NCBI GenBank assembly: GCA_021814165.1
Contig: JAKAIX010000002.1
Span: 136,501-200,500, forward strand
DNA length: 64,000 bases
Reading direction: 5' to 3'
Source: a bacterium
Lineage (GTDB): Bacteria > Patescibacteriota > Minisyncoccia > UBA6257 > GWB1-50-10
Position numbers and translations under genes: made by a program. The stretch's first letter is position 1. Each line of letters starts with the position of its first letter. The notes under the pieces are model-generated. The model searched no databases, was not told the DNA's origin, and worked only from the letters and a program-made list of their open reading frames with translations. Of the stretch, positions 1,606 to 62,261 are shown in pieces.

Positions 1606-3267
1606 TTATGGATAGACCTGGGAGCCCCCAACGCACGCGTTTAGTTTTCCTTGGGCGTCCTTCAGGGTTAGCTGAATTGCGGCAAGAAGTTGTGTGGCAT
1701 CTGACTTAATACTCGACGCCGAAGAGAGCGCAGCGGTTATGAGATCTCTAAACGATTGATCGATTGAAGGCATCTGCCCGCTACTAGCCTGGTTTTTTAA
1801 GAGCGAAGCGCGATCCTGGAGCTTCTGAATGCTGTCGGCTTGGTTGTTTAGGCTGTCTTGTATGGTCTTGATTTGCCCGGGATAGGTTGAGGTTGCGAGA
1901 ACAAGAGTGCTCGATGCCCAACTTATGTCAGTTGAAGAGGCGTTTGATCCCAGACAACTCAGGAGTGACTTGGTTGTAATATAAAGATTTCGCGTCGAAC
2001 TCGCCGCGGTTAAGAGCACATTTGAGGCGTCGTTCAGTGCTGTTTGAGCATCATCTAATGGCCTAAAAATTGCCGCAATTTGACTATTAGTCATGTTTTT
2101 TTGTGCTGTATCTGAAGAGGATGCTGCGTTTGTTATATCGGGGGTTCGCGTGATGCCCGAGTTTTGAGTGTTATCGGGTGAAAGTTTTGCGAGGCCGGTT
2201 TTTACTCCATTTATCCCCTCTTTCACCAATCGATTAAATGCCGCGTCGAGCACTGCGGCGAGCACATTTGTTATGTCGTCCGAGTTGACAATGAAGTCGA
2301 TGTTCGAGCCAAATGATTTGTTCAACCCCTCCGCGATGGTTCGTCCTGGCGTTGTGGTTTTTTTCTCCGTGCACCGGTATTCGAAATTAGGATCATCGCT
2401 CGTCGGTTGTGGCGCGGATCCGTCAGTTTTTACCACAAGAGGAAGACTGCCAGCATAAGTGGAGGCACCAAACTGGAAACCGGGTGTCAAAATATTGCCT
2501 CCAGATCCCTTATTATTCGCGGGCTGACTTGTCTTTACACTGTACATTGTCCAAGTGATACACGCCTCGCTGTTAAATCCGAGATTGATGTTTTGTTTCA
2601 AAACCGACTCCTGCTGTTTTTGCGCCACCGATTGTTCAAGCGCTTGCTGCGTGAGAATCTCCAGTCCGTACTGGTTATTTTGAGGTTTCAAGAGATCGGA
2701 ATAACCGAGCCATCCGCCGGTTTTGAAATCCCTTTTGAATGATTCCAAATTACTCACCACCTGAGAGAGCGTACAACTCACCTGCTTTTTTGTGGTATCC
2801 GGTTGAGCGAGATAGAAATTAACATTGAAGGGTATTCCACTGCATAATTGCCCCGCTCCTACTTGTCGGATTACCTCTCCGGCGGCCTCGTCTGCCGCCT
2901 GTTCAAATACCTTCCCCGGTTTTTGGAGAAAAAGTGGTTTGTCTCCGTTTTGTATCCACTGCACCGTTTCTCTCGTTATCTCATCAAGAAGCTGTTTTTT
3001 GAGTGTTGCGAGAAGTACTTTAAAAACCTTGTCTTGAATAAATCGCCACGCCTCCTCAAGAAAGCCAGCGGTGGTCGCTGTTGTTTGAGCGGCACCGGCA
3101 GCGGCTACGGCAGCGGCTACGGTCGGATCTATAACGAGTTGCGGAGTGACGTTGCTAAGAAGCCAAAACTGGGCTTTTGCTTTTGGCATAAGGAGGGCGG
3201 GATCTGAAATAAGAAAGATACTCAACACAAGAAATAATGAGACCACTCTGATTTTTTGTTGCTTCAT
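1606..3267 (-). CDS. Secreted protein of 553 aa with an N-terminal signal peptide; Ser/Thr/Ala/Asn-rich; unknown function.
   Basis: Complete ORF with N-terminus MKQQKIRVVSLFLVLSIFLISDPALLMPKAKAQ (signal-peptide-like). It is in an operon between an anchored protein and the polytopic membrane protein. Confidence 0.55.
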   Translation of the reverse strand: MKQQKIRVVSLFLVLSIFLISDPALLMPKAKAQFWLLSNVTPQLVIDPTVAAAVAAAGAAQTTATTAGFLEEAWRFIQDKVFKVLLATLKKQLLDEITRETVQWIQNGDKPLFLQKPGKVFEQAADEAAGEVIRQVGAGQLCSGIPFNVNFYLAQPDTTKKQVSCTLSQVVSNLESFKRDFKTGGWLGYSDLLKPQNNQYGLEILTQQALEQSVAQKQQESVLKQNINLGFNSEACITWTMYSVKTSQPANNKGSGGNILTPGFQFGASTYAGSLPLVVKTDGSAPQPTSDDPNFEYRCTEKKTTTPGRTIAEGLNKSFGSNIDFIVNSDDITNVLAAVLDAAFNRLVKEGINGVKTGLAKLSPDNTQNSGITRTPDITNAASSSDTAQKNMTNSQIAAIFRPLDDAQTALNDASNVLLTAASSTRNLYITTKSLLSCLGSNASSTDISWASSTLVLATSTYPGQIKTIQDSLNNQADSIQKLQDRASLLKNQASSGQMPSIDQSFRDLITAALSSASSIKSDATQLLAAIQLTLKDAQGKLNACVGGSQVYP

Positions 3268-3284
3268 AGGGATAAAAACAAAGG

Positions 3285-4091
3285 TTATTTCTTGTTTAGT
3301 GTGTTTGCTTGGTTAGAGAGAACGTTCTGGAGCATTATATTTTCTTCAAGTACCGAGCGAACATCGTTTAAGGCGATTGTCGCCTTCAGGGGATCGTTTT
3401 TAAAATCAAGAACGGCAGTGTATACTACTGACTTTTTCGCCCACAAATTCAGGTTCTGGAGATGCCACACCTTCCATTGGGGCGGTGCCTCGAGCGCCAA
3501 AAGGTCATTTACCTGCCCATTTATAATATTGATGTATTTTGCGAGCGGAGCAGAATCACTCTTATTGAAAAATGCGCTTAGAATATCCGTGGTCGACATA
3601 GAGAACGACCCGAAATTTTTCTGTGTGATCGAACCAATGGCGTTTAGATAATTGGTCTGCGCCTGGATCGAACCATCCTTCCCTGTCCTTATGTCTTTTT
3701 CAGAAAACGAGGGAAACGAGAGATCTTGCGATAGCGCCTGCGTAAGAAAATCATCCATTGATCCGGAAGGAGGCATTCTCAGCGTGTCGGTTGTATCGGT
3801 TGGGTTCCCGCTGTTCAGGTTATAGACCGACTCGACATAGTGCTGTGCTAATGTCTGCGTTAAGTTTCTGTCAGCTGCGGTGCTCGTGCCGATTCCCCAG
3901 GAATTGAGGTCCGAAAGCCCTCCCTCATTCTCAACTCCGTACCCGGCTTTTCCTGTGTTGGGATTTTGGACGACCGAGATGAACGGCTTTTCCCCGGACG
4001 ACGGGGAAATAACAAGGAGAAATGCGACAAGAATCCCCGCTCCGAGAATCATAAAAGCGGCAACCCTTCTTTTTTTGAAATATTGTTTCAT
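3285..4091 (-). CDS. N-terminally membrane-anchored extracytoplasmic protein, about 268 aa, unknown function.
   Basis: The ORF track gives 3285..4121. The internal ATG at 4091 (MKQYFKKRRVAAFMILGAGILVAFLLV) is preceded by an AGGGG-like RBS and avoids overlap with rsmA, so I prefer it. One TM helix, then a polar domain. Confidence 0.5.
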   Translation of the reverse strand: MKQYFKKRRVAAFMILGAGILVAFLLVISPSSGEKPFISVVQNPNTGKAGYGVENEGGLSDLNSWGIGTSTAADRNLTQTLAQHYVESVYNLNSGNPTDTTDTLRMPPSGSMDDFLTQALSQDLSFPSFSEKDIRTGKDGSIQAQTNYLNAIGSITQKNFGSFSMSTTDILSAFFNKSDSAPLAKYINIINGQVNDLLALEAPPQWKVWHLQNLNLWAKKSVVYTAVLDFKNDPLKATIALNDVRSVLEENIMLQNVLSNQANTLNKK

Positions 4092-4110
4092 CCCCTTTTT
4101 GTAATTGGAA

Positions 4111-4971
4111 TCACCCATCATAATTGTACAACATTTCTCCTATCTTTTTTATATCCTCGACACATAGGTTATGCGGGCGGTCGTTCGGTTTTACCCCGAT
4201 TTGTTTCAGACGTTCCGCAACACCATCTTTTTCTGCCTTGTTACACTTCTTTAACGATCGAAAGGCGAGTGTTATGTTGTTTACAATCGTTTTTCTGGGC
4301 TGCCCAAAGAGCGCATGCAGCGTGTCAAAATACCCCTGTTGTTTGCTCGGCGTCTCAACGGGTTGGTGTGTTTCAAGAAGAATGACGGCGGAATCTACTT
4401 TCGGTTTCGGAGCAAAATCATTCTTTCCGACGATCATCACCACCTTCGGTTTCGCCCATAATTGAATGCTTGCCGCAAGGAGATTCATATGAGGAGGCGT
4501 TGCCGTCGCGCGCAGCGCAACCTCTTTTTGGATCATGAATACTGCTCGCTTCGGGAGCATGGACAACCCGCTTATCGTACGGAAGAGGAATCCGGTGAGG
4601 TAGTAGGGAATGTTGCCTACCAGTTTGTAATTTCCAATTTCTAGTTTCCGATTTCTAATTAGTTCCGGAAGAACTTTCAAAACATCCCCATGGATAATTT
4701 CAATTTCGGATAAATTTTCCTTTCGGGGTTCAGAATTTATTTGAAGCTTGTCGTTTGTGATTTGGAATTTTTTTCTTAGAAAATCAACGAGGGCAGGGTC
4801 TTTCTCGATGGCTATGACTCTCACGGGGTAACGTAAAAGCTCCCCCGTGAGTTCGCCGTGCCCGGGACCAATTTCTATAATCACGTCACCGTCCTCCGGC
4901 GCGATGGCGTCGATTATTTTTTTCACCACCGTCTTGTTTTGCAGAAAATGTTGTCCGAGCCTCCTGGTCAT
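4111..4971 (-). CDS. rsmA: 16S rRNA (adenine1518/1519-N6)-dimethyltransferase RsmA/KsgA.
   Basis: N-terminus RLGQHFLQNKTVVKKIIDAIAPEDGDVIIEIGPGHGELT carries the SAM-binding motif, and VGNIPYYLTGFLF matches the KsgA signature. It has a C-terminal helical domain. Confidence 0.85.
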   Translation of the reverse strand: MTRRLGQHFLQNKTVVKKIIDAIAPEDGDVIIEIGPGHGELTGELLRYPVRVIAIEKDPALVDFLRKKFQITNDKLQINSEPRKENLSEIEIIHGDVLKVLPELIRNRKLEIGNYKLVGNIPYYLTGFLFRTISGLSMLPKRAVFMIQKEVALRATATPPHMNLLAASIQLWAKPKVVMIVGKNDFAPKPKVDSAVILLETHQPVETPSKQQGYFDTLHALFGQPRKTIVNNITLAFRSLKKCNKAEKDGVAERLKQIGVKPNDRPHNLCVEDIKKIGEMLYNYDG

Positions 4972-5501
4972 TGTAGTTGCGTTGTTTGTTTGAGAAATGT
5001 TTCGTCGTCTATTTCACCGATAACAATAAGACGCACGAACCCCGAGAGATTTTTTTCTTCGATGGTTTCGAAAATCATGCGCGGGATCGGGCGCTTTCCA
5101 AGAAACACGCTTCTTTGAACGAACGAATATCCCGCACTCGTAAGCGCACTCCGGAGCCAATCGCGTTCTCTCCTCCGTTTTTCGGGAATATCAAACGTGA
5201 TAAGACGCCACTTGCCGTCCCACGGTTCTTCGGGCGGACGCTCTCTTTGTCGAAGAAACTGAAACCCTCTTTCGGAAAGTTTTAGTTCACCTTGTTCCGA
5301 TCGTTCGACTAACCCCCTCTTCTCAAGCCGCCACAGCGTGGTACGGACACTCCCCCGTTTCGCGTGCCTTAGCGCCCCCAGACCGTCGTTTATAATCGCT
5401 TGAATCGGAGCAGATCCCCGTTCGGCAATACCCGACAGAATACCGAGGCCAAGCATCCCCATTCTCCGAGAAGATATATCTTTTTTGCTCCGCACTCGCA
5501 T
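4968..5501 (-). CDS. Small winged-helix regulator, PaaX-like. Its C-terminal half has a Cas2/VapD-like sequence pattern.
   Basis: The N-terminus (TTLWRLEKRGLVERSEQGELKLSERG) is wHTH-like. The C-terminus is WRLITFDIPEKRRRERDWLRSALTSAGYSFVQRSVF, i.e. a hydrophobic strand, D-x-P/E, an Arg cluster, then an SVF motif. It overlaps the rsmA stop by 4 nt. Confidence 0.45.
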   Translation of the reverse strand: MRVRSKKDISSRRMGMLGLGILSGIAERGSAPIQAIINDGLGALRHAKRGSVRTTLWRLEKRGLVERSEQGELKLSERGFQFLRQRERPPEEPWDGKWRLITFDIPEKRRRERDWLRSALTSAGYSFVQRSVFLGKRPIPRMIFETIEEKNLSGFVRLIVIGEIDDETFLKQTTQLQ

Positions 5502-5550
5502 AGTCTCTGTTTGAAATTATTATATCATAACACTTCATTCACGATCGTGG

Positions 5551-6672
5551 GTGAAGTGTTATGCGGTTCTTTTCTTTCCCAGCCTCTTTGCTATACTTAG
5601 TTTCATAAGTACGTTATTTTCCCACGTAAGAACCCTTTTTAAGAGGGGAGCTCCTAAGACGACCAGTTTCTGGTCGGTGCTTTTTGTAGTAATAATGGCC
5701 CTTTTTGGAGGGATTATAAGTGTCGGTGCGAGAGGGATAATCAGCGGTTATGAGGAGGGAAACAACTGGGGTTTTGGTGGGCCTGTTCAGAAACCGGAGA
5801 TGGTTGCCGCGTCAACGGGAGAAAAGAGCTCTTCCGAAGGAACGGGTTCTTCAAACGACGAACGACACACCCTTATCGCGGGAGACACGGCCGTGGTCGC
5901 TTCGTCGGACCCTTTAAGTGATCTTCTCCCCGTAAGCGGAGGGCTTAAAAGATATAAAGTGAAACGCGGCGACACCCTCCAGGGAATCGCCGATCGTTTT
6001 CACGTTTCCCGCGAAACGCTTCTATGGGCGAATCCGGGGGCCTCTTCGGTCCTTACGACGGGACAAACACTCCTGGTACCCCCCGTTTCCGGCGTCGTAT
6101 ACCAGGTTAAGCCGGGCGACACCCTTAAAGAAGTCGGCGGTACGTACGGGGTTGATCTTGAGCTTATAAAAAAATACAACGCGGATTATCAGAACGTACT
6201 AAGCGAGGGCGGAGTACTCATCCTCCCCTATGCGCGCCCGCTCGCTTCAAGCGGTCGCGGAACAACGTCCGCGGATGCCGATCTGCCGAATCTGAAAAAT
6301 TATTTCGCGCTTCCCGCTATCGGATGGAACTGGGGGCAGCTTCATAATTACAATGCGGTAGATATAGCGAATCAATGCGGCACGCCCGTTCATGCCGCGG
6401 CGGAGGGACTCGTGGTGATCGATGAAAATTTCGGGAGCGGCGCGGAAGGATGGAATGACGGATATGGAATCTTTGTTTTGGTCGAACATCCGAACGGAAC
6501 CAAAACTCGCTACGCGCATCTCGCAAAAGCTCTCGTGAAACCCGGCGATTACGTGAATCGCGGAGAAGAACTCGGTCTTATGGGAAACACCGGAAACACG
6601 CACGGACCGACCGGCTGCCACCTGCACTTTGAAGTATATGGAGCGAAGAATCCGTTTGCGGTCACGAAGTAG
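5551..6672 (+). CDS. Membrane-anchored peptidoglycan hydrolase with two LysM domains and a C-terminal M23 (LytM) metallopeptidase domain.
   Basis: The LysM repeats are GDTLQGIADRFHVSRETLLWANP and KPGDTLKEVGGTYGVDLELIKKYN. The M23 motifs are ...HLAKALVKPGDYVNRGEELGLMGNTGNTHGPTGCHLHFEV. Confidence 0.85.
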   Translation: MKCYAVLFFPSLFAILSFISTLFSHVRTLFKRGAPKTTSFWSVLFVVIMALFGGIISVGARGIISGYEEGNNWGFGGPVQKPEMVAASTGEKSSSEGTGSSNDERHTLIAGDTAVVASSDPLSDLLPVSGGLKRYKVKRGDTLQGIADRFHVSRETLLWANPGASSVLTTGQTLLVPPVSGVVYQVKPGDTLKEVGGTYGVDLELIKKYNADYQNVLSEGGVLILPYARPLASSGRGTTSADADLPNLKNYFALPAIGWNWGQLHNYNAVDIANQCGTPVHAAAEGLVVIDENFGSGAEGWNDGYGIFVLVEHPNGTKTRYAHLAKALVKPGDYVNRGEELGLMGNTGNTHGPTGCHLHFEVYGAKNPFAVTK

Positions 6673-6799: not shown

Positions 6800-8338
6800 T
6801 TATTCGTTAGTCCTTATCCGATATTGAAACGCCTCTGCGAGGTGTTCTTTTGTTATTATCGGGGCGCTCTCGAGATCGGCGATGGTTTGTGCAACGCGGA
6901 GAATCCGATAGTACCCCCGCACCGACACGAAATTCCGCTCAATCATCTCCTTAAGAAATGACTCCGCATTTGTCTCGAGCGCGACCAACGCATCGACATT
7001 TTTTGACGACATCTCGTTATTGGTATAAATAGAAAGGTTATGTTTCAAGAAACGTTCCCTTTGAAGTACTCGCGCGCGACTCACGGATTCCTTTGCTGCT
7101 TCTTGTTCCCCTTCCGTGGGTTGGCTTCGTAAAACTTCTATTTTTACCCGCGGAACCTCGAGCTGGATATCAATCCTATCGAGAAGAGGTCCCGATATCC
7201 GCTTCTGGTATCGAAATACTCCGTGCGCGGTACAGGTACACTCGCGTTCCGCGTCCCCGAAATATCCACAGGGACAAGGATTCATCGCCGCCACAAGCAT
7301 GAATCGGGAAGGAAATATTGTGGCTTGTCTTGCGCGTGCAATGCACACCTCGCCTCCTTCGAGTGGTTGGCGAAGTGCTTCTAATGCATCGCGATGAAAC
7401 TCAGGGAGTTCGTCTAGAAAAAGAACTCCCCGATGCGCCAGGCTTATCTCCCCCGGCTTGGGGGTCTGACCCCCTCCAATAAGCGCGATTAACGATGTGC
7501 TGTGATGTGGTGACCTGAAGGGTCTGTGATGAATAAAGGGGAGCTCTTCATGAAGAAGTCCCGCGGCGCTCCAGATCGCCGTGGTTTCTATCTTTTCATC
7601 AAGTGAAGGGGGAGGAAGTACTGAAGCGAGCGCCTGTGCGAGCATAGTCTTTCCTGTGCCGGGCGGCCCCGAAAGAAGCAAATTGTGTCCCCCGGCGGCT
7701 GCGATTACGAGCGCGCGCTTTGCGGCTGATTGTCCTTTAATCTCACCGAAGGTCACGAGCGTGGTCGGATATGTCCCGGGAAATTCGGTGTGAGGTTGAG
7801 GAACAATCGGCTCAAGCTCTTCCAGGTGTGCGATGAGACGTGAAAGAGTCGCGACGGGGAATATTTTCACCTCTTTTACCGCGGCCGCTTCCCGTGCATT
7901 TGCCTCAGGAACAAAAAGCTCGGGAATTCCTTTCTCGCGGGCGAGGAGAGCTACATTAAGACAGCCGTTCACTGGGCGGAGGGATCCATCGAGGGAAAGT
8001 TCGCCGACGAACATCTTATTGTGCGTCGAAAACAAACCGAGTTGCTCGCTCGCCATGAGATATGCAAGGGCAATAGGAAGGTCGAATCTCGATCCGATCT
8101 TTTTCACGTCCGCGGGTGCGAGATTTATGGTAATGCGGCGATTTTCTTTCGTGGGTGGCTTGATGCCGGAGTTTTTAAGAGCGGAGTTCACGCGTTCCTT
8201 TGCCTCGCTGATCGCTTTATCCGCAAGCCCCACGATGTTAAACGCGTGAAGGCCGACGTTCAGGTCGGCCTCCACCTCAATAAGTTCTGCGGCAATCCCG
8301 TTAAGCTCCGCTGACAAGAGTTTCGGTACCGCGTGCAT
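6800..8338 (-). CDS. comM: YifB/ComM-family Mg-chelatase-like AAA+ ATPase.
   Basis: It has an N-terminal Lon-protease-like domain (RITINLAPADVKKIGSRFDLPIALAYL), a Walker A motif GPPGTGKT, and C-terminal ComM-like helices. Confidence 0.85.
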   Translation of the reverse strand: MHAVPKLLSAELNGIAAELIEVEADLNVGLHAFNIVGLADKAISEAKERVNSALKNSGIKPPTKENRRITINLAPADVKKIGSRFDLPIALAYLMASEQLGLFSTHNKMFVGELSLDGSLRPVNGCLNVALLAREKGIPELFVPEANAREAAAVKEVKIFPVATLSRLIAHLEELEPIVPQPHTEFPGTYPTTLVTFGEIKGQSAAKRALVIAAAGGHNLLLSGPPGTGKTMLAQALASVLPPPSLDEKIETTAIWSAAGLLHEELPFIHHRPFRSPHHSTSLIALIGGGQTPKPGEISLAHRGVLFLDELPEFHRDALEALRQPLEGGEVCIARARQATIFPSRFMLVAAMNPCPCGYFGDAERECTCTAHGVFRYQKRISGPLLDRIDIQLEVPRVKIEVLRSQPTEGEQEAAKESVSRARVLQRERFLKHNLSIYTNNEMSSKNVDALVALETNAESFLKEMIERNFVSVRGYYRILRVAQTIADLESAPIITKEHLAEAFQYRIRTNE

Positions 8339-8801: not shown

Positions 8802-9965
8802 CTATTGGAGATGCTGAAGCGCCGCCTTAAATCCGTCGTAGGAGCCGCTTACTATAAGAACGTTTCCGCTCCACCCGTAGTTGATGGAAAAACCGGAATT
8901 CGAGAATGTAAGATAGCGATTTTGAACGCCGCTCGTCTGCCCGTCTTTCCACGACCCCGGGGTTCCCGGATCGGCGGCAAACACACCGGCGAGTCCTTTG
9001 CTTGCTTCGAATGCTTGTGCGAAGGCGGTTTTGAGTCCGGCGAGCGAAGCGGCAGCGTCTGCCTTCGCAATGATGCCGAGCGCTCGGTTGCCGCTCGCGT
9101 TGGTGTAGATAAACTCGGAAACATTAGCGCTTGGAAATCCGTTTAGAAGCGCGCCAGACGAGAAATCTCCTCCGAAAATCGTTTGCATAATTGTCCCGAA
9201 TGAAACGAGATTACCCGTTGCGTCCTTATTTACCACTTCCGTGACGCTCGGCGCCTTAGGAGAAGAGAAGGTGACGCCCGAAAGTGAGGCCCCGGTTATG
9301 ACGGAAGTGCTTTCCGCCGAGACATCTGCTGGTGTTTTAAATACAGACACATGGGATGGCTTTTCAGGCGGAACGGCGGTCTCGGGTGTTGTTGTGGCCG
9401 TTGAGGTGGCCGTAGTCGTGGCGAGAGGCTCTTCTGCCGGAGGAGTTGTTGGAGGAACCTGCGGCTCCGGCGCGGTATTTACAATCGGTGTCGGCTCGCT
9501 CTTGCCGAAGAAAAGAGGATATACCACGAAATAACCGAGTGCCGCGAGCCCCACGACGATAATAAAGACAACCAACGCGACGAAGACGCCGTTTTTCTTT
9601 TTTACGGGCCCCATCGGTGTTTGTTGATTCATTCCTATGTCCATTTTTGGAAGTTCAAACGATTGAGGATTAACGCCGGCGGTTTTTTCCGCAGGCGCGC
9701 TTGGAGAAGCGGCGGCGGGCGCCTGCTGCGGCGTATAGGTTTTCGGCGTCGCGTCACCTGTTTGGATTGAAGAAATATCCGACCCCATCGTTCGCGCTTC
9801 AACGCGCGGGTTTTGTGCCGTATTAATCATCGGCGACTCCCCCTCACCGGTTCCGAGTGGTTTATTCTGTTGCCACTGGCCGGGATTTATAGTTTCGTTT
9901 CCCATGTGTTTATTATAGCACTTGGAGGTCGGGAGGCGTGTGGATAAAAAAAAGAAAATCCCCAA
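8802..9965 (-). CDS. Membrane-anchored Pro/Thr/Ala-rich extracytoplasmic protein of unknown function.
   Basis: One TM helix (VFVALVVFIIVVGLAALGYFVVYPLFF), then a PT-rich linker and a Gly/Ser-rich C-terminal domain. The start could instead be the ATG at 9905 (MGNETINPG). Confidence 0.5.
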   Translation of the reverse strand: MGIFFFLSTRLPTSKCYNKHMGNETINPGQWQQNKPLGTGEGESPMINTAQNPRVEARTMGSDISSIQTGDATPKTYTPQQAPAAASPSAPAEKTAGVNPQSFELPKMDIGMNQQTPMGPVKKKNGVFVALVVFIIVVGLAALGYFVVYPLFFGKSEPTPIVNTAPEPQVPPTTPPAEEPLATTTATSTATTTPETAVPPEKPSHVSVFKTPADVSAESTSVITGASLSGVTFSSPKAPSVTEVVNKDATGNLVSFGTIMQTIFGGDFSSGALLNGFPSANVSEFIYTNASGNRALGIIAKADAAASLAGLKTAFAQAFEASKGLAGVFAADPGTPGSWKDGQTSGVQNRYLTFSNSGFSINYGWSGNVLIVSGSYDGFKAALQHLQ

Positions 9966-10116
9966 ATCCGTATTGCTCTCAACTCGGGCGCTTGCTTACC
10001 AAATATACCAATATTAGAAAGATAGGACCGTGCTTGGTAAGCATCCCGAGGAGTTCACGACGAGGGGCTACTTCATTATTCGGTCTTACCCTCGTTCGAG
10101 CAATACGGATTTGGGG
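9960..10116. repeat. 157-nt element bounded by perfect 19-bp inverted repeats (ccccaaatccgtattgctc / gagcaatacggatttgggg), with an inner 9-bp inverted repeat.
   Basis: The terminal inverted repeats are at 9960-9978 and 10098-10116. The inner pair is gcttaccaa (9994-10002) with ttggtaagc (10035-10043). It lies immediately downstream of pnp. Confidence 0.7.
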
Positions 10117-10140
10117 TACGGAAAGGAAAGATAGGGTTGC

Positions 10141-12201
10141 TTAAGATTGAGGAGGCGCTTCCATCTGCTTTAGAGAAAGTCCGATCTTCCCTTCTTCAAC
10201 GCGGATGATTTTCGCTTTTACTCTGTCACCCACATGCACCACGTCCTCCACCTTTTTCACAAAGCCGTTTTTCAGTTCCGACACGTGAATCATCCCGTCT
10301 CGTCCTCCGCCCAGATCTACAATTGCTCCGAATTCGAGGATGCGAACCACGGGCCCTTCGACAACTTCCCCGATGTGATACTCGTGGAAGATCTGATCGA
10401 TAAACCCGATCGCTTTCGAAACGAGGGAGGCGTCGGTACCCGCGATAAATACGCTCCCGTCCTGTTCTATGTCGATCGAAACCTTGTTTTCAACCTGAGC
10501 GAGAATGCCGTTGATGGTCTTGCCGCCGGGACCGATAAGCTCGCCGATTTTTTCCGGATTTATATGAATCGTCGTAATCATCGGTGCAAATGGCGAGAGC
10601 TCCTTTCTGGGGGCGGCGAGTACCGCATTCATCACATCCAATATATGAAGGCGCGCCTTTTTCGCGGCAACGAGCGCTTCCTTGAATATTTGAAGCGTGA
10701 TGCCGCCGATCTTCACGTCCATCTGAATCGCGTTCACGCCGTCTTTCGTGCCTGCAACCTTGAAATCCATGTCGCCGTAGTGGTCTTCGGGCCCCTGAAT
10801 ATCGGTTAATATTTTATAACCCCCTTTCTCGTCGCTCATGAGCCCAATCGAGATTCCTGCGATTTGCCGCTCGATCGGTACGCCGGCATCCATAAGGGAA
10901 AGTGACGTCGCGCAAGTCGATGCCATCGATGACGACCCGTTCGAGGAAAGCGTCTCCGCAACGACGCGAATGGTGTAGGGAAAAGTGTCGGTTCCGGGAA
11001 GCATGGGACGTATCGCTTTCGCGGCAAGCGCTCCGTGTCCTATCTCGCGTCTCCCCGGCCCTCTGGATCGCCCCGTTTCTCCGACCGAGAAGCTAGGGAA
11101 ATTATAGTGAAGCATAAAGCGCTTTTTCTCCGTCGTTTCCATGGTCTCGACAATCTGCTCTGCCCCGGGGGTGCCGAGCGTAGTAACCGCAAGCACCTGA
11201 GTTTCTCCCCGTATGAAGAGCGCCGAGCCGTGCGTGCGGCGGAATAATCCCGTCTCTGCGAGAAGGTCGCGCACTTCGTCGAGCGCCCTTCCGTCGGCGC
11301 GCCTCCCTTTTTCGATTGCGAGAGCGTGCACGAAACGATCAACCTCTTCTTCAAAAACAATTTCCGCAATGCGAAGCGAGTCCTCGTTTTCTCCCAAGGC
11401 CTTTAGATGCTCGAAAAGTTTTCCGAGCAGTTCCTCAACTCGCTTTTCTTTGAGCGCCGTTTCAAGCTCGTCTTTCAGAAATTCACTCACCGTATGTCGC
11501 AGATTCGGGTCCGCCTCCGGGAGTGCGACGTCCGCCTTCGGTTTCCCAACCTCCTTTATGATGGTCGTCTGAAAGTCGATGAGTTTTTTTATCTCTTCGT
11601 GCGCTTCGGTAAATATGCGTTCCGCGTCGCTCTCAGGACGTTCTTTCCCCTCAAACTCAATCATATTCACAAACTCCTTCGTCCCTGAGAAAAACGCCTG
11701 ATATCCGTATGAATGATCCGTTTTCGGCTCGATCGCCTTCACGCCTGCGACGGGTCCGCTCCACGGCACATCGGAGATTGCGAGCGCCGTCGATGCGGCA
11801 AGAAGTGCGATCACGTCCGGATCGTTCTTCTCGTCATAAGCGAGGACGGTGATAACTACTTGCACCTCGCGCCGGAGGCGCGGATCGAAAAGCGGCCGGA
11901 GCGTTCTGTCGATAAGGCGGGCCGAAAGCGTCGCTTCATCGGATGGTCGTCCCTCGCGCCGCACAAAGCGGCTTCCGATAATTTTCCCCGCCGCGTAGAA
12001 ACGCTCTTCGTAGTCGACGGTGAGTGGAAAGAAGTTTCCCGACTTGTTTTCTCCCGACATTACGACGGTTGCGAGCACCGCCGTGTCCCCGTACTTTCCG
12101 ATAACCGCGGCATTCGCTTTGCTGGCAAGTTTCGAAATTTCGATTTGAACCGATTCGCCCTTGAGAGTTGTAGAATACGTTTTTTTCGCTAAATCCATAT
12201 G
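10141..12201 (-). CDS. pnp: Polynucleotide phosphorylase (PNPase).
   Basis: Two RNase PH domains, then KH and C-terminal S1 (GEVVEGPVVRILEFGAIVDLGGGRDGMIHVSEL). I placed the start at MDLAKKTYSTTLKG by alignment with bacterial PNPase N-termini. The ORF track start at 12249 is probably too long. Confidence 0.9.
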   Translation of the reverse strand, partial: HMDLAKKTYSTTLKGESVQIEISKLASKANAAVIGKYGDTAVLATVVMSGENKSGNFFPLTVDYEERFYAAGKIIGSRFVRREGRPSDEATLSARLIDRTLRPLFDPRLRREVQVVITVLAYDEKNDPDVIALLAASTALAISDVPWSGPVAGVKAIEPKTDHSYGYQAFFSGTKEFVNMIEFEGKERPESDAERIFTEAHEEIKKLIDFQTTIIKEVGKPKADVALPEADPNLRHTVSEFLKDELETALKEKRVEELLGKLFEHLKALGENEDSLRIAEIVFEEEVDRFVHALAIEKGRRADGRALDEVRDLLAETGLFRRTHGSALFIRGETQVLAVTTLGTPGAEQIVETMETTEKKRFMLHYNFPSFSVGETGRSRGPGRREIGHGALAAKAIRPMLPGTDTFPYTIRVVAETLSSNGSSSMASTCATSLSLMDAGVPIERQIAGISIGLMSDEKGGYKILTDIQGPEDHYGDMDFKVAGTKDGVNAIQMDVKIGGITLQIFKEALVAAKKARLHILDVMNAVLAAPRKELSPFAPMITTIHINPEKIGELIGPGGKTINGILAQVENKVSIDIEQDGSVFIAGTDASLVSKAIGFIDQIFHEYHIGEVVEGPVVRILEFGAIVDLGGGRDGMIHVSELKNGFVKKVEDVVHVGDRVKAKIIRVEEGKIGLSLKQMEAPPQS

Positions 12202-12321
12202 AATGATTGTGTGCGCTGCCCGATTATCGGCATATTCGCATACTCGCATCGTTATCGGGTTGCGGTACCGATGCCAATATACGAATAAACCGAATTATAA
12301 GAACAACGCCGTTACGACTTA

Positions 12322-12837
12322 TTATCGCTCCCTGATTTTTAGAAGCGCGCGCGGTATTTTTTCCACCTCGACGAAGGTGTCCGCCGCCTCCTTTATTTTT
12401 GCCGATGCCGTTCTCGAGAACGCCGCAACATGCACTTCTTTCCCGAGCCCCCATTTCAGGTACTCGATGAGTGGAACGAAGTCGCCGTCGCCCGTGATGA
12501 GCACGACCACGTCAAGCGAAGACGCCATCCGAATCGCATCGACTGCCATCCCGACGTCCCAGTCCCCCTTTTTCGTCCCGTCGGCGAAGATCTGGAGATC
12601 TTTGGTGCGGAGATCGAAACCGCTCTTCCTCAGGGCGTCGAAAAAGGTATCCTCTCTTGTCGCGGGATCGCTTTTCACGACGTACGCGAATGCGCGCACG
12701 AATTGGCGGGTCCCTATAACCGACCGAAGAAGTTCTTTAAAGTTCACCCGCGCACGGTACAAGTTTTTCGCAGAATGGTAAATATTCTGCGCATCAAGGA
12801 AGATGCCCACGCGCTGATTCGGATTCATGTGTGACAT
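12322..12837 (-). CDS. NYN/LabA-like (PIN-fold) domain protein.
   Basis: Sequence GIFLDAQNIYHSAKNLYRARVNFKELL...VVLITGDGDFVPLIEYLKWGLGKEVHV matches the NYN (DUF88) acidic-residue pattern. Confidence 0.7.
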   Translation of the reverse strand: MSHMNPNQRVGIFLDAQNIYHSAKNLYRARVNFKELLRSVIGTRQFVRAFAYVVKSDPATREDTFFDALRKSGFDLRTKDLQIFADGTKKGDWDVGMAVDAIRMASSLDVVVLITGDGDFVPLIEYLKWGLGKEVHVAAFSRTASAKIKEAADTFVEVEKIPRALLKIRER

Positions 12838-12840
12838 GCG

Positions 12841-13107
12841 TTACGCTCCGAGTTCGAGTTTCTTCGAAATTCTCGTGTACTTTTTCTCGTCGGTGTCGCG
12901 GAGATACTGAAGAAAACGGCGTCGCTTTCCCACCATCATTAAAAGTCCTCGGCGGGAGTGGAAATCCTTGGGGTGTTTCTTCAGGTGATCGGCGAGGAAT
13001 TTGATGCGCTTTGAAATAAGCGCAATCTGCACCTCGCTGGAGCCGGTGTCAGTTGTGTGCTCCTGGTGTTCTTTAATAACCGTTTGCTTCTGGCGCTTGC
13101 TAAGCAT
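12841..13107 (-). CDS. rpsO: 30S ribosomal protein S15.
   Basis: MLSKRQKQTVIKEH...GSSEVQIALISKRIKFLADHLKKHPKDFHSRRGLLMMVGKRRRFLQYL is S15-family. This is the classic rpsO-pnp neighbourhood. Confidence 0.9.
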   Translation of the reverse strand: MLSKRQKQTVIKEHQEHTTDTGSSEVQIALISKRIKFLADHLKKHPKDFHSRRGLLMMVGKRRRFLQYLRDTDEKKYTRISKKLELGA

Positions 13108-13147
13108 AATGCGCTGATTTTACTACAATGTTCGGGGATTGTAAAGT

Positions 13148-13295
13148 GCGATTGGTTCTTTTTCTCGTTCGCAGAAATCTTCGCTCGCACGTATTCTCCT
13201 TGCTCCTCCTTATTCCTATTTCCTGCGTCGTTGCTCGGGAATTCGTCTGCTCGCTCCGATATGCTTACGAGAAAAAAACCAATCGCACTTCTTTG
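13148..13295. repeat. About 148-nt element bounded by inverted repeats of about 25 bp (aagtgcgattggttctttttctcgt / acgagaaaaaaaccaatcgcactt), in the rpsO/xerC divergent region.
   Basis: The arms are at 13148-13172 and 13272-13295 with one mismatch. The interior is pyrimidine-rich. Confidence 0.65.
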
Positions 13296-13352
13296 GTTTT
13301 GTTGTTGGGCACGCCCCCGTTTTGCGACAGATAGTGATACAATACAAGTGAA

Positions 13353-14240
13353 ATGAGCGAGATCGAAAAATATTTGAAGGAATACCTCGATTATCTCGAG
13401 GTGGAAAAAAACCGCTCCCCGAAAACGCGCGAGAACTACGAGCGCTATCTCTCTCGGTTTGTGGCGACAATAAAAATTAAAACGCTCGGTGATGTCACCG
13501 AGGAGTCGATACGGGAATTCAGGGTGCGGCTCTCGCATGAGAATTTGAAGAAGATCAGCCAGAGTTATTATGTGATCGCGATCAGGAACTTTCTGAAATA
13601 TCTCGTGAAGCGGGGCGTTAAGGCGCTTCCGCCGGACAGAATCGAGCTTCCGAAGGTTTCGCGCCGCGATATCGAGACGCTTGAGTACGGGGAGCTTGAG
13701 CGGCTCGTCGCCGCGCCGAAGATATCAACATTCCGCGGACTCCGCGATAAGGCGATTTTAGAAACGCTTTTTTCGACGGGGCTTCGTCTTTCCGAGCTTT
13801 GCGCGCTCCCCCGCTATATCGATCTCGATCGCGGTGAGATCACCGTGCGCGGAAAGGGAGATAAACTTCGAATCGTATTTCTTTCGGACGCCGCGAAAAA
13901 GACTATTAAGGCATATCTCGAAAAACGGCCCGACACCAACGAAGCGCTCTTCGTAAGTTTGAGTAAAAAGGGGAAAGTGCTCGGACGGGTAACGCCGAGG
14001 TCCGTCGAGCGGCTCGTTTCATACTATGCGCGCGCCGCGGGGATTCCGAAAAGAGTGCATCCCCACCAGCTCCGCCACTCGTTTGCCACCGATCTTCTTA
14101 TAAACGGCGCCGATATCCGGTCGGTGCAGGCGCTTCTGGGACACGCGAACATCTCGACGACCCAGATCTACACCCATCTTACAAACAAAGAGCTCCGCGA
14201 GGTTCATAGAGCGTTCCACGGAAGGAGGAGGAAAAACTAG
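13353..14240 (+). CDS. Tyrosine recombinase, XerC/XerD-like.
   Basis: N-terminal SAM-like domain, then the catalytic C-terminus HQLRHSFATDLLINGADIRSVQALLGHANISTTQIYTHL carrying the R..H-x-x-R..Y motifs. Its codon usage is host-like. Confidence 0.85.
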   Translation: MSEIEKYLKEYLDYLEVEKNRSPKTRENYERYLSRFVATIKIKTLGDVTEESIREFRVRLSHENLKKISQSYYVIAIRNFLKYLVKRGVKALPPDRIELPKVSRRDIETLEYGELERLVAAPKISTFRGLRDKAILETLFSTGLRLSELCALPRYIDLDRGEITVRGKGDKLRIVFLSDAAKKTIKAYLEKRPDTNEALFVSLSKKGKVLGRVTPRSVERLVSYYARAAGIPKRVHPHQLRHSFATDLLINGADIRSVQALLGHANISTTQIYTHLTNKELREVHRAFHGRRRKN

Positions 14241-14296
14241 GTTCGGTATTGGAGGCTGAGCCTCCGCGAGTAGGAAGCTCAGCCTCCCTGTTTTAA

Positions 14297-16860: not shown

Positions 16861-16932
16861 ATACACATGACGACAACTAATATAGGGAGGCCGGACTTCC
16901 TGACGGAGGTCCGGCCTCCAGAGCCCCCATGA

Positions 16933-18486
16933 CTACAGTCCGTACGTGTAAGGGATAGCGATTAGAAAGCCCCACACAGAAAGAATTCCTATTACGCCAT
17001 ACGCGAGCATCCGCGTGCGTTTTGTTTTATTCTCGAGCCAGCGCGTAATAAGCGTTGCAAGGAGCGCAATTGCAAGAAGAAGTGCGGGAAAGTAGTGATA
17101 TAAAAACGTCGCGCGTGTTACAAAAGTGAAAAACGGAAGGAGCGCGAACACGTACCCAAAAAGAAGAATCGCGATCGGATTTTCCTTTTCATCATACGTC
17201 GCGCGCCGCGCGATTCGCTTAATATATTTAAAAAGCGTCCCAAGGACAACGAACGTACTCGCAACCCATATAAATATGTTTCCTATGAGCATAATATCGC
17301 CGCTACTCGTAAAACGCATTGGTTTCATCATAAAGGGCCAGAGATACCATGGGCTCATCATCGGGTTCGTGCCTCCCACGGTGTAGCCGGCGACCCCAAG
17401 AAGAAGCTGATACAACGATGCCTTCATAATCGAAGGATTCGCGGTTATGTTCGGAATATTAAAGAGCGACCCCATAACGGAAAGTTGTTCGCTGGGAGTA
17501 AAAAGCAAACCATTAATGCCGACGAAAAGAACAAGAAACACGGCTATTGCAAAGCCGAAGAAGCGGAGCATATCGCGATGCTGTCGTTCTCGCGTGAGAA
17601 TATTTTTTAGAACTAATGCGACGACGATCGGCCCCGCAAACACGACTGCGGTGAGTTTTATGCTTACGGCGAGGCCGAAGAAGATCGCAGATAGTAGTAA
17701 ATTGTGCGGCCAATACCACCGAGAAAATGTGCGCTCCGGGGCGCCTGCCTGCGCAGGCAGGCTTGGCAACGTCTTACCCACTTTTTCTCCCGCACCAATC
17801 CCTTGCCGCACGCCGGCATTTTTTTTGAAGAAAAAGTAGAGCGCGAGGAAACCTAATGAGAGATATATCCCATCCATAAGAATAAGGCGTGTATCGAGAA
17901 GAAGCGCGTTCTCGAGCGTGACGAAGAAAGCAGTAAGAAGCGCGGCGCTGTCACCCGCGAGCTCCCGGACAAAAAGGAACACGGAAAAAATAAGGAGGAG
18001 CCCGAAGAGCGCGCTCACCATCCTCTCCATTACATAAGGGAAGCGTTCATACGGCTTGTCAATTCCTTTTGTAGTGAACGATGTCCCATCGGGTGTTTTT
18101 TCATTTACTACATATGTAGCCTCTGTAAGATCGTTTTTGTCGTAGAAAAAAAGAGGGACGGAATAAAGGAATCTCCCGAGGGGAGGATGAATATCGAAAT
18201 AAGGAACATGAAGTGCGTTATCCGCGGCATATGTTGCGAAATACGCCTCATCGAAAACGGGGTGGCTGGGCGTACCAATACGCACGAGGTGCAACGCAGC
18301 GCTTAGGAGAAGGATGAGAGAGAGGATAAGAAACGGATGACGGACAAAACAAGGAGACCCGGCTTCCCCTGCCTGCGCAGGCAGGTCGCGGAGGCCGGGT
18401 TTCCCCGACGACAATATATGGAAGCCCGGCTTCCTCGCGGAGGCCGGGCTTCCTATGTTACTTTCCCTACTTTCCCTGGAGAACAT
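16933..18486 (-). CDS. GT39/GT83-family (PMT/ArnT-like) integral-membrane glycosyltransferase. Its N-terminal cytoplasmic tail is encoded by repeat elements.
   Basis: The first-loop motif is VFDEAYFATYA...HPPLGR, the DE-motif typical of PMT/ArnT. It has more than 10 TM helices. The first roughly 45 codons overlap copies of the GC-rich hairpin repeat and palindrome (GKPGLRDLPAQAGEAGSP). The real start may be a downstream in-frame TTG. Confidence 0.7.
   Translation of the reverse strand: MFSRESRESNIGSPASARKPGFHILSSGKPGLRDLPAQAGEAGSPCFVRHPFLILSLILLLSAALHLVRIGTPSHPVFDEAYFATYAADNALHVPYFDIHPPLGRFLYSVPLFFYDKNDLTEATYVVNEKTPDGTSFTTKGIDKPYERFPYVMERMVSALFGLLLIFSVFLFVRELAGDSAALLTAFFVTLENALLLDTRLILMDGIYLSLGFLALYFFFKKNAGVRQGIGAGEKVGKTLPSLPAQAGAPERTFSRWYWPHNLLLSAIFFGLAVSIKLTAVVFAGPIVVALVLKNILTRERQHRDMLRFFGFAIAVFLVLFVGINGLLFTPSEQLSVMGSLFNIPNITANPSIMKASLYQLLLGVAGYTVGGTNPMMSPWYLWPFMMKPMRFTSSGDIMLIGNIFIWVASTFVVLGTLFKYIKRIARRATYDEKENPIAILLFGYVFALLPFFTFVTRATFLYHYFPALLLAIALLATLITRWLENKTKRTRMLAYGVIGILSVWGFLIAIPYTYGL
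18355..18453. repeat. Composite of two GC-rich hairpin repeat units, one with the palindrome CCTGCCTGCGCAGGCAGG nested in its loop.
   Basis: gacccggcttcc-CCTGCCTGCGCAGGCAGG-tcgc-ggaggccgggtttcc, then gaagcccggcttcc-tcgc-ggaggccgggcttcc. Related copies lie at 14251-14289, 16885-16919, 18793-18897, 38995-39036, 43507-43525, 48032-48065, 54350-54386, 54932-54966, 62206-62261 and 63758-63776. The palindrome alone is at 17744-17761 and 50194-50211. Confidence 0.8.
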
Positions 18487-48793: not shown

Positions 48794-50350
48794 GTGAAAG
48801 CTCTCGACTTCAAAAATAAAAAGGTGCTTATCATGGGTCTCGGGACGCTCGGCGGAGGAATCGCAAGCGCGAAGTGGTTCGTCTCGCAGGGCGCAAAAGT
48901 AACGGTGACCGACTTGCGTACAGAGAAGAGATTGAAAAATTCTCTTGAAAAGCTCGGGTATTTTAAGAATCGAGATCTTAAGGGGGGCACTATGACGCGT
49001 CATAGTGCGCATAAGGAAGTTGTAGAATTTGTGTTGGGGAGGCATAGGGTTCAAGATTTTAAAAATAACGATATTATCGTCGTGAACCCCGCCGTACCGC
49101 GGGAGAGTAAGTATCTCGCAATAGCGAGAGAAGAGGGGAAAGTTATTGTGAACGACGCGAGAGTATTTTTCGATTCGGCACGGAATCCGATTATTTCCGT
49201 AACCGGTACAAGGGGAAAAACCACTACTACAAACTGGATTGCGCATTTCCTGAAATCGAAGTATCCGGATACGATCGCGGGAGGCAACTCGTCGAAGGAA
49301 GCCCTCCTCTCTCTTGTCGAAAAACTGAAAAACAAAAGAGCGCCCGTCGTAGTTGAGCTTTCCTCATGGCAGCTTGAACTTTTAGATAAATCGTCTCGTG
49401 GCCCCGATGTGGCGGTCATTACCAATATCTACCCCGACCATCTGAATCGTTATAAGAACATTCGGGACTACGCCTCGGCGAAGGCAAATATTTTTTCAAA
49501 CCAGACGAGATCGCAAAAGCTCGTTCTGAATCTCGATAATCCGTGGACGAAGTTCTTTCTCTCGAAAAAACCAAAGGCGAGAGCGTACTTCTTTTCCCTG
49601 AAACCGCTTTCAAAAGGTAAGCAGGGGATATTTGTTTCGAACGATCGCGTGATCTTGAAAATCGGCAGGCAGGAAAAAATTGTCCTTGGAGAAAAAGAAT
49701 TTAAGATATTACGGACCAGGGGAGAACACAATGTGCAGAACTTCCTCGCGGCGTCGCTCGCGGCGTCGCTTATGGGGATTTCGAATGATGCGATACGAAA
49801 GAGAGCGAGAACGCTTCCCGAAATCCGGTACCGGGAGGAAATCGTGTTTAGGGAAAAAAAACTCCTCGTGGTAAACGATTCGGCAGGCACCTCTCCCGAT
49901 GCGGTAATCGCGGCGATCAGGCGTTTTAAAAACCGGGGAGATTTGATATTAATTACCGGCGGTACGGACAAGAATCTTGAATTCAGTCCGCTCGCGAGGG
50001 AAATAAAGAAGACGCTGAAACCCAAGCAGGTATTTTTTTTGAATGGCAGCGCAACAAAGAAACTGATTAAAGAATTGAGAGCGCTTCGATACTTCCCGAA
50101 AACTGGTCCAAGGATTTTCGAAAGCCTACCCGAAATCTTGAAGGGAATCAGGGATAGAGAATTAGGTATTAAAAAACGGGAATCAGGAATTAGCCTGCCT
50201 GCGCAGGCAGGGAATCAGGAATTAGGGACGCGATTTGTAATTCTTTTCAGCCCGGGGGCGGCGAGCTTTGAAAAGTTCAAAAACGAATTCGACAGAGGTG
50301 AGAAGTTTGATATATACTTGAAGAAACTTTTCGAGGTGGGTGGTGTTTAA
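48794..50350 (+). CDS. murD: UDP-N-acetylmuramoyl-L-alanine--D-glutamate ligase.
   Basis: N-terminal Rossmann MKALDFKNKKVLIMGLGTLGGGIASAKWF, the Mur ligase P-loop VTGTRGKTTTTNWIAHFL, and the C-terminus FSPGAASFEKFKNEFDRGEKF. It carries in-frame repeat insertions. Confidence 0.8.
   Translation: MKALDFKNKKVLIMGLGTLGGGIASAKWFVSQGAKVTVTDLRTEKRLKNSLEKLGYFKNRDLKGGTMTRHSAHKEVVEFVLGRHRVQDFKNNDIIVVNPAVPRESKYLAIAREEGKVIVNDARVFFDSARNPIISVTGTRGKTTTTNWIAHFLKSKYPDTIAGGNSSKEALLSLVEKLKNKRAPVVVELSSWQLELLDKSSRGPDVAVITNIYPDHLNRYKNIRDYASAKANIFSNQTRSQKLVLNLDNPWTKFFLSKKPKARAYFFSLKPLSKGKQGIFVSNDRVILKIGRQEKIVLGEKEFKILRTRGEHNVQNFLAASLAASLMGISNDAIRKRARTLPEIRYREEIVFREKKLLVVNDSAGTSPDAVIAAIRRFKNRGDLILITGGTDKNLEFSPLAREIKKTLKPKQVFFLNGSATKKLIKELRALRYFPKTGPRIFESLPEILKGIRDRELGIKKRESGISLPAQAGNQELGTRFVILFSPGAASFEKFKNEFDRGEKFDIYLKKLFEVGGV
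50180..50225. repeat. 18-nt palindrome CCTGCCTGCGCAGGCAGG inside murD, flanked by a 14-nt direct repeat (gaatcaggaattag).
   Basis: gaatcaggaattag-CCTGCCTGCGCAGGCAGG-gaatcaggaattag. It translates in-frame as SGISLPAQAGNQELG. Confidence 0.8.
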
Positions 50351-62205: not shown

Positions 62206-62261
62206 GGTCTGAGGCCCGGCCTCCGAGACCTGCCTGCGCAGGCAGGGGAAGCCGGGCCTCA
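62206..62261. repeat. Hairpin repeat with the nested palindrome; it doubles as the terminator downstream of the 607-aa surface-protein gene.
   Basis: ggtctgaggcccggcctcc-gaga-CCTGCCTGCGCAGGCAGG-ggaagccgggcctca, followed by TCGGTTTTTATTC. Confidence 0.7.

Follow-up and report, generated by a model that had tools for sequence, protein, structure and literature searches.

The 64,000-nt stretch of DNA analysed here (hereafter, the window; positions 136,501–200,500 of contig JAKAIX010000002.1, assembly GCA_021814165.1) carries a 157-nt palindromic element at positions 9960–10116 on the minus strand, at the 3′ end of pnp. The element is probably a composite, non-autonomous palindromic repeat of Paceibacteria (Patescibacteria/Candidate Phyla Radiation, CPR) that was co-opted as the terminator of the pnp operon. 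It combines an outer stem, the boxes of a conserved family core and a lineage-specific interior, and it is one member of a low-copy dispersed family of hairpin repeats that lie at the 3′ ends of genes and, in one case, within a coding sequence and in frame with it. The original prediction, made from the letters alone, described the element as a MITE (miniature inverted-repeat transposable element). This label is loosely right, since the element is a non-coding, dispersed hairpin repeat of the broad small-palindromic-repeat class, which includes the Rickettsia palindromic elements (RPEs), SPRITE and repetitive extragenic palindromic (REP) sequences, with an unusual layered build. The label does not fit in that the arms are not the termini of the family, that no target-site duplication was seen, and that no transposase was found in the window.

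The geometry of the element is largely as it had been predicted. The arms at 9960–9978 and 10098–10116 are complementary at 19 of 19 positions and enclose 119 nt. Read on the minus strand, which is the sense strand of pnp, the 5′ arm of the outer stem is CCCCAAATCCGTATTGCTC (10098–10116), and the 3′ arm is GAGCAATACGGATTTGGGG (9960–9978; the plus-strand letters of these positions equal CCCCAAATCCGTATTGCTC). The GGGG base of the 3′ arm adjoins a U-tract, AUUUUCUUUUUUUU, which lies directly 3′ of the stem and has 12 U in 14 nt (9946–9959, minus strand). Inside the stem, the minus strand holds the two boxes of the family core, GAGGGTAAGAC on the 5′ side (10083–10093) and, on the 3′ side (9984–9991), a box that is CCCGGAGCGCCCGA or CCCGGAGCGCAC in full form in the relatives and is shortened to GCGCCCGA in the window. 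Positions 9992–10082 (minus strand) are occupied by an interior of ~96 nt found only in the window, the edges of which, set by comparison with two relatives (L102 and L104, see below), are good to a few nt; it holds a 10-bp hairpin, GCTTACCAA...TTGGTAAGC. The inner inverted repeat of the element, given as 9 bp in the original prediction, is present as a perfect 10-nt repeat (9993–10002/10034–10043). Both strands fold far below shuffled sequences, at −67.9 kcal/mol (z −4.6) for the minus strand and −71.7 kcal/mol (z −5.4) for the plus strand, in line with the long structured fold that had been proposed, and the element indeed lies between the pnp stop codon (10141–10143) and the next gene on the same strand (ATG at 9905).

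For comparison, syntenic loci were fetched from relatives (the 104 loci fetched are numbered here with the prefix L; the element of L104 is that of L006). The outer stem proved to be specific to the pnp locus, where it is orthologous in three genomes: the window, L102 (element at 17430–17513) and L006/L104 (18133–18219 in L104). In L102, the closest relative, the arms are CCCCCAATCCGTATTGCTC and GAGCAATACAGATTGGGGG, which differ from those of the window by one compensated change and one C·A mismatch, and the interior is 46 nt long. In L006/L104, the pnp of which is 90% identical, the arms are CCCCACATCAGCATCGCTC and GAGCGATGCTGATGTGGGG, with an interior of 49 nt; here, 4 of the 19 positions differ from the window, all four differences are compensated in the opposite arm, and the stem is still paired at 19 of 19 positions. 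If the substitutions in each arm fell and were resolved independently, the chance of such four-fold compensation is, by our own calculation, ~1/3876 × 1/81, or ~3 × 10−6. All three interiors share GAGGGTAAGAC, identical in the three, beside the 5′ arm and CGCCCGA beside the 3′ arm. The relatives have an apical hairpin of 19 nt (TGGGCCAAGCGGCCCGGAG in L102), in place of which the window has its ~96 nt; no further copy of this sequence was found in the window or in the 104 loci by blastn-short. Because the interiors of the relatives measure only 46–49 nt and the 96-nt sequence has no other copy in the fetched DNA, the long interior behind the appearance of a 157-nt MITE is a recent peculiarity of the window genome.

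The original prediction had proposed searching for further copies of the inverted repeats. No other family copy shares the arms themselves; the part that recurs is the interior core. Within the window, the 19-mer arm, allowing up to 3 mismatches, is found only at these two places, and none of 100 shuffled sequences had any match. An exact-arm scan of 185,579 species genomes gave three single chance matches (Vibrio, Clostridiales and Kiritimatiellia), and blastn-short searches of all fetched DNA revealed no further copies of the whole element. The recurring part is a core of ~45–60 nt, defined by the boxes GGGTAAGAC ... GGAGCGC and having the form (A5)GTGGGTAAGAC, a short GC hairpin, and then CCGGAGCGCAC(T5). 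The 5′ core box has the form GTGGGTAAGAC in a copy within a PMT glycosyltransferase gene and in two copies in L097. The latter are intergenic, bear A5...T5 flanks and lie right at the 3′ ends of genes; one of the two separates a pair of convergent genes.

A covariance model was seeded with four copies (L006, L096 and the two of L097), leaving out L102 and the window. Outside this seed, it matched the pnp copy of L102 (49 bits, E-value ~1 × 10−10), the PMT genes of L102 (45 bits) and L104 (40 bits), and the window at 17713–17795 on the minus strand (28 bits, E-value 3 × 10−5). The pnp copy of the window has changed so much that the model gives it no score, and it is counted as a member of the family because it is orthologous to that of L102: the arms are 91–94% identical, the boxes are identical, and the site is the same. 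In an alignment of eight copies, which was fitted to the covariance model and thus favours the structure, 90% of the cells are paired and 13 are double-change cells; none of 500 shuffles equalled this, and slid controls were far lower. In the DNA read, the core occurs twice in the 64-kb window (9960–10116 and 17713–17795), twice within 8 kb in L097, and likewise twice in L102 and in L104. The covariance model detected no copies in ~0.6 Mb of pnp loci from more distant Patescibacteria, and the core pattern had 0 matches in viral contigs. The strand carrying GGGTAAGAC is the mRNA-sense strand at every site except L009, and in 7 of 8 copies its fold is more stable than that of the complementary strand; this preference fits action either as RNA or as that particular DNA strand.

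The presence of the element at the pnp site is patchy. It is found in the window, L102, L104 and L096; in L096, the pnp of which is 74% identical, the same core (~85% identity) is flanked by a quite different 20-bp stem. The site is devoid of it in L099, L100 and L101, which are 89%-identical relatives of L096, as well as in L010, L094 and L097. In L009, the core is present at the pnp site in reverse orientation, and the reversed core encloses a small hairpin resembling the outer stem of the window clade, together with an 18-nt palindrome. The nested 29-nt hairpin of L009 (CCCCCACATCTAT-GGC-ATAGGTGTGGGGG; within 7179–7251, minus strand) has a CAAG direct repeat on both sides, the only possible target-site duplication seen. 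At the same site, L092 carries an unrelated 140-nt rod hairpin (5092–5231), further copies of which were likewise sought in all fetched DNA by blastn-short and not found. Another unrelated long rod hairpin of L092 (1857–2200) is situated before rpsO, and both rods adjoin the downstream promoter. The intergenic spots after pnp and before rpsO thus seem to collect hairpin insertions repeatedly. A metagenome scan with the pnp protein yielded only distant loci (at most 63% identity), all without the element. Three Logan contigs (L002, L008 and L093) end inside palindromic elements, which suggests that assembly graphs break at these long palindromes.

The second core copy of the window (17713–17795, minus strand), identified by the covariance match and by translation, lies in frame in the PMT open reading frame (ORF) at 16933–18486 (minus strand). 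It encodes the peptide GEKVGKTLPSLPAQAGAPERTFS of the 517-aa product and contains a nested palindrome, CCTGCCTGCGCAGGCAGG. Alignment of the PMT orthologues revealed that the segment is an insertion behind a conserved YFFFKK motif. P0121, P0122, P0123 and P0125 have the insertion, which thus occurs in the window, in L102, in L104 and in the genome of L009; it is degenerate in P0126 and P0127, and is absent from P0124, a 67%-identical orthologue, and from all of the more distant PMT homologues aligned. The stems of the PMT copies are 24 bp long in L104 and 26 bp in L102, with different sequences, and the stem of the window copy has decayed to ~12 bp. A peptide search for more in-frame copies with a 58-aa concatenate gave four word-sharing candidates, none of them scoring, and is uninformative either way. 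In addition, the first ~60 codons of the annotated PMT gene of the window (18297–18486, minus strand) cross several palindromic repeats (18353–18453), and these codons are missing from the orthologues; the true start codon is probably located further downstream than annotated.

As to the role of the pnp copy, the terminator function raised in the original prediction fits the sequence: on the pnp-sense strand, a perfect 19-bp stem ends in GGGG and is followed immediately by AUUUUCUUUUUUUU. Neither the window nor L102 has a further hairpin in the interval from the pnp stop codon to the next promoter. The U content of the 14 nt after the stem is 12 in the window, 10 in L102 and 7 in L104, and it is L104 that has a separate canonical terminator (an 11-bp GC stem and a T-run) just upstream of the element. 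Because the U-richness complements the terminator of L104, and because the L097 copies lie at gene ends with A5/T5 flanks, termination with 3′-end protection is the best-supported role, and the element is most likely a Rho-independent terminator of the pnp operon and a protector of its 3′ end. In the proposed scenario, the family core at the pnp locus is located in the loop of a long, locus-specific outer stem, the two arms of which have co-evolved, and in the window genome the apical hairpin of the core was later swapped for ~96 nt of unrelated sequence. Co-transcribed with rpsO, the NYN-domain gene and pnp, the 19-bp stem with its GC-rich base and U-tract would most likely cause Rho-independent termination and also block 3′-exonucleases, and would thereby insulate the near-leaderless promoter of the next gene.

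Several observations weigh against this scenario. The copy count for the host covers 64 kb only, and the host species representative gave no match in the exact-arm scan, which therefore carries no information on copy number. No mobilising enzyme was found among the proteins of the window. The pnp copy of the window is the exception in the comparison of strands, its antisense strand folding at −71.0 and its sense strand at −66.8 kcal/mol, and the only uncompensated change of L102 is a C·A on the sense strand, which would pair as G·U on the antisense strand. The site was not called in a consensus terminator scan, because its loop far exceeds 8 nt. Finally, selection for termination does not readily account for stems of 24–26 bp within a coding sequence. 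They point to action on the hairpin itself, at the level of DNA or via mobility. The hairpin may be important to the element as such, or the arms may be kept matched by template-switch correction of the palindrome.

The last of these possibilities is the basis of one of the alternatives, in which homogenisation of palindromes at the DNA level (template switching, or quasipalindrome correction, during replication) would produce the perfect arms as a side effect, and the element would be selfish or neutral DNA without function at the site. Correction of quasipalindromes towards perfect palindromes is reportedly an established mutational process (the work of Ripley and of Lovett). The long perfect stems kept in the PMT coding sequences of L102 and L104, next to the decayed PMT copy of the window, agree with such a process, as does the occurrence of several other classes of repeated palindromes in the genome, some of them in frame (tsaD and a MurD-like gene). 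Homogenisation leaves unexplained, however, why a strong U-tract is found exactly where another terminator is lacking and why the G·U pairs are biased to the sense strand; as a full account it has a low probability, and as a contributing process it is compatible with a co-opted palindromic repeat rather than exclusive of it. It also seems rather unlikely that the element is primarily a conserved cis-regulatory or stand-alone RNA of the pnp 3′ region, such as an RNase III/NYN processing site or the small RNA suggested originally, with its repeat nature being secondary. The compensatory changes do keep a 19-bp helix, which has the length of an RNase III substrate; most copies favour the sense strand; two proteins of RNA decay, NYN and PNPase, are products of the operon; and the loop beside the stem can be read by eye as tandem G·A/A·G pairs, with one A–U to G·U change among the window, L102 and L104. 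A conserved RNA of this operon would not, however, be expected to be missing in five close relatives with the same operon, to have its core reversed in L009, to recur with the same core at unrelated loci and in coding sequence, or to have its interior replaced freely as in the window, and no Rfam family corresponds to it.

The two remaining alternatives take the 19-bp repeats as sites recognised by a protein. A classical MITE, which would stem from an insertion sequence by deletion and be mobilised by a transposase through recognition of the terminal inverted repeats, would have the size and geometry observed (157 nt with perfect 19-bp arms), and the spread of the family over several loci with patchy occupancy among relatives would suit it as well. 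We regard this as highly unlikely, because the arms are unique to the locus, recurring neither in the window nor in the 104 loci (the three chance matches in the 185,579 genomes aside), because other family copies carry unrelated arms, and because the differences between the arms of different species are compensatory, the sequence itself not being conserved, unlike in protein-recognised repeats. Moreover, no transposase is encoded by the ORFs of the window, and the flanks show no target-site duplication (CCGTA...ATTTT in the window, TCATA...TTCTT in L102, CCATA...CTCCC in L104). The other candidate of this kind, an inverton in which a nearby XerC-like tyrosine recombinase would recombine the 19-bp inverted repeats and so flip a promoter upstream of the 367-aa gene, has a negligible probability and was rejected. 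It draws on perfect inverted repeats around ~120 bp, a tyrosine recombinase gene 3 kb away, and an extended −10-like motif, TGGTATATT, on the minus strand of the interior. A promoter scan found no sigma-70-type site within the element. The interiors of the relatives are tiny (46–49 nt) and promoterless, however, and the conserved promoter that serves the 367-aa gene is located outside the element. The two assemblies in which the element was read (the window and L001) are identical in this intergenic region, the 5′ core box has this orientation in a partial Logan contig (L002) too, the recombinase gene is syntenic also in relatives without the element, and the window's two long hairpin elements (the other, near rpsO, is described below) have unrelated repeats.

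The reading as a co-opted palindromic repeat also places the family among known repeat classes. RPEs are palindromic repeats of Rickettsia that occur between genes and also within conserved protein genes, where they keep the reading frame and add a peptide segment (PMC10969869). The similarities include palindromic repeats of ~100–150 bp, a reduced genome, and intergenic as well as in-frame occurrence (here, the PMT copy); an in-frame insertion in a conserved gene is thus found for the family, not for the pnp copy. The differences are that a single coding-sequence site is documented for the core family, that its conserved part is the central core with arms varying by copy, and that the host is a Patescibacteria metagenome-assembled genome (MAG). 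The likeness is one of behaviour, and a sequence relation is not expected. According to the literature, SPRITE, BOX and RUP of Streptococcus pneumoniae and REP/BIME are gene-end hairpin repeats that resemble Rho-independent terminators, cluster and insert into one another (PMC10969869). Nested palindromes are likewise seen in the PMT copy, L009 and the pnp copy of the window, whereas the present family seems to be of low copy (two cores in 64 kb) and its outer stems are locus-specific. REP/REPIN sequences are described as short palindromes that bear a conserved tag (GTAG or CGTC) and are linked to a RAYT transposase (PMC3733652); by inspection, the core, which starts with (A)AAGTGGGTAAGAC, has no GTAG/CGTC tag at its 5′ end, and no Y1 transposase/RAYT was found within the window. 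MITEs of the Correia/ERIC type share transcripts with the genes on either side and form long hairpins there, which can be targets of RNase III or affect mRNA stability (PMC10969869). The element studied here is of similar size and is likewise a co-transcribed long hairpin, yet the conserved terminal inverted repeats and target duplications of those MITEs are both missing. With canonical intrinsic terminators, it shares a GC-rich stem base followed by a U-tract and a location at an operon end ahead of the next promoter, and it differs in being a 157-nt hairpin with a branched interior instead of one with a loop of 3–8 nt.

Proteobacteria, Firmicutes and Rickettsia are well known to contain small palindromic repeats, and the literature searches made found none described for the Candidate Phyla Radiation. 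The present case combines a repeat family in which the core is conserved and the stems co-evolve freely, a copy apparently turned into the terminator of a core RNA-decay operon, and copies read through in frame in conserved enzymes. This gives those who annotate CPR genomes grounds to anticipate peptide insertions derived from repeats and contigs broken at palindromes. The family also offers a natural data set for asking whether selection or template-switch correction preserves the pairing of long hairpins. It can be proposed only tentatively that the clade carries several classes of hairpin repeats, which colonise the ends of genes and also, in frame, the inside of essential genes (PMT, tsaD and the MurD-like gene), with stems actively maintained by compensatory evolution even within coding sequence, as an RPE-like convergence of reduced genomes. 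If so, the hairpin itself would be the functional unit, for example as a substrate of a single-strand DNA transposase or, alternatively, as an RNA processing signal for the NYN/PNPase machinery of the operon itself.

The genomic context agrees with a Paceibacteria host. The closest homologues of the pnp protein come from Patescibacteria/Paceibacteria, an identical protein is encoded on a 340-kb contig of MAG GCA_027423885.1, to which the window is identical, and the neighbourhood contains four T4SS-pilin-like genes and the PMT glycosyltransferase gene, as fits this group. On the minus strand, rpsO (12841–13107), an NYN-domain gene (PF01936; 12322–12837), pnp (10141–12249), the element and a 367-aa gene without a Pfam match (start ATG at 9905) follow one another in this order. 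The order rpsO–NYN–pnp is kept in every Paceibacteria locus fetched as contigs encoding the homologues. Downstream of the pnp stop codon, the minus strand reads: 24 nt, the 157-nt hairpin, AUUUUCUUUUUUUU, TTATCCACA, 18 nt, TGCTATAAT, 6 nt and the ATG. The TTATCCACA at 9939–9947 (minus strand) is a perfect DnaA-box consensus that occurs once in the window, 18 nt upstream of TGCTATAAT, the extended −10 of the 367-aa gene. A DnaA-like box, TT[A/G/T]TCCACA, is conserved together with its spacing in L102, L104, L009, L010, L092, L094 and L096. Promoters that look to be of the extended −10 type (TGnTAnAAT) are found at 9905–9925 (minus strand), 13107–13135 (minus strand) and 13320–13355 (plus strand). 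As the start codons of the 367-aa gene, rpsO and the xerC-like gene lie 6–12 nt past the −10, their mRNAs are expected to be leaderless or near-leaderless.

The original prediction had also placed another element, at 13148–13295, in the rpsO leader/xerC promoter region and suggested that it may be the S15 autoregulatory structure. Such an element does exist, as a 147-nt rod-like foldback at 13144–13290 (minus strand) between the divergent promoters of the xerC-like gene and rpsO. It is not part of the rpsO leader: it ends at the −35 of rpsO (TTTACA), after which the −10 (TAAAAT) and the ATG follow within ~35 nt, the ATG being ~12 nt past the −10. The arms, 13144–13162 and 13272–13290, are 19 nt long with 95% complementarity and are extended by 13159–13173/13262–13276; the fold has −57.3 kcal/mol and a z of −7.5. 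Alignment with L102, L104 and L010 shows it as an insertion of ~165 nt between the xerC-like promoter and the −35 of rpsO, and it is absent from L102, L104/L006 and L010, all of which retain the same rpsO promoter. The S15 leader was ruled out because the foldback lies upstream of the rpsO promoter, outside the rpsO 5′ untranslated region, and because the closest relatives lack it; it is an insertion specific to this lineage, and both of the divergent promoters are downstream of it. Blastn-short revealed no second copy in the window and the 104 loci, and the resemblance to the core family is weak (GTAAGC...CGGAGCG only).

An Rfam identification, which the original prediction had named as grounds for reclassification, was not obtained, there being no credible family for either region. 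At the gathering threshold, only three tRNAs were detected in the window, with none of the families for rpsO/S15 leaders, the PNPase leader, 6S, SRP or Y RNA, and a permissive search (E-values up to 10) of positions 9700–13600 and of the L096 and L006 intergenic regions gave chance-level matches only. SRP, 6S, Y-RNA, attC and retron identities were ruled out, since their defining motifs or neighbour genes are lacking and no Rfam match was obtained. A K-turn in the internal loop of the core was rejected by hand, as the registers do not fit.

Other palindromes are also frequent in the window. The 18-nt perfect palindrome CCTGCCTGCGCAGGCAGG occurs at four sites (17744, 18368, 50194 and 62229) versus 0.01 expected; the one at 50194–50211 (plus strand), within the ORF at 48794–50350, encodes SLPAQAG in frame near the C-terminus of a MurD-like ligase. 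For 15-nt palindromes similar to GGAGGCYGRGCCTCC, 31 matches were found against 0.44 expected, among them sites at 14251–14287, 16886–16919, 18353–18453, 54350–54386, 54934–54967 and 62210–62261. They are often arranged as tandem pairs and sometimes flank CCTGCCTGCGCAGGCAGG, giving a BIME-like mosaic. In the tsaD ORF (54044–55177, minus strand), two GGAGGC..GCCTCC palindrome pairs are in frame (54350–54386 and 54934–54967), and their peptides, EAEPPRVGGSAS and GGPASGKKPGLL, both match gaps in the comparison with TsaD of T. maritima (6n9a_D); a third insertion is visible at residues ~140–166. Lastly, L102 carries a gyrA-like gene (2406–6077; 1223 aa) with an intein (PF14890), the orthologue of which in the window has 832 aa and no intein.

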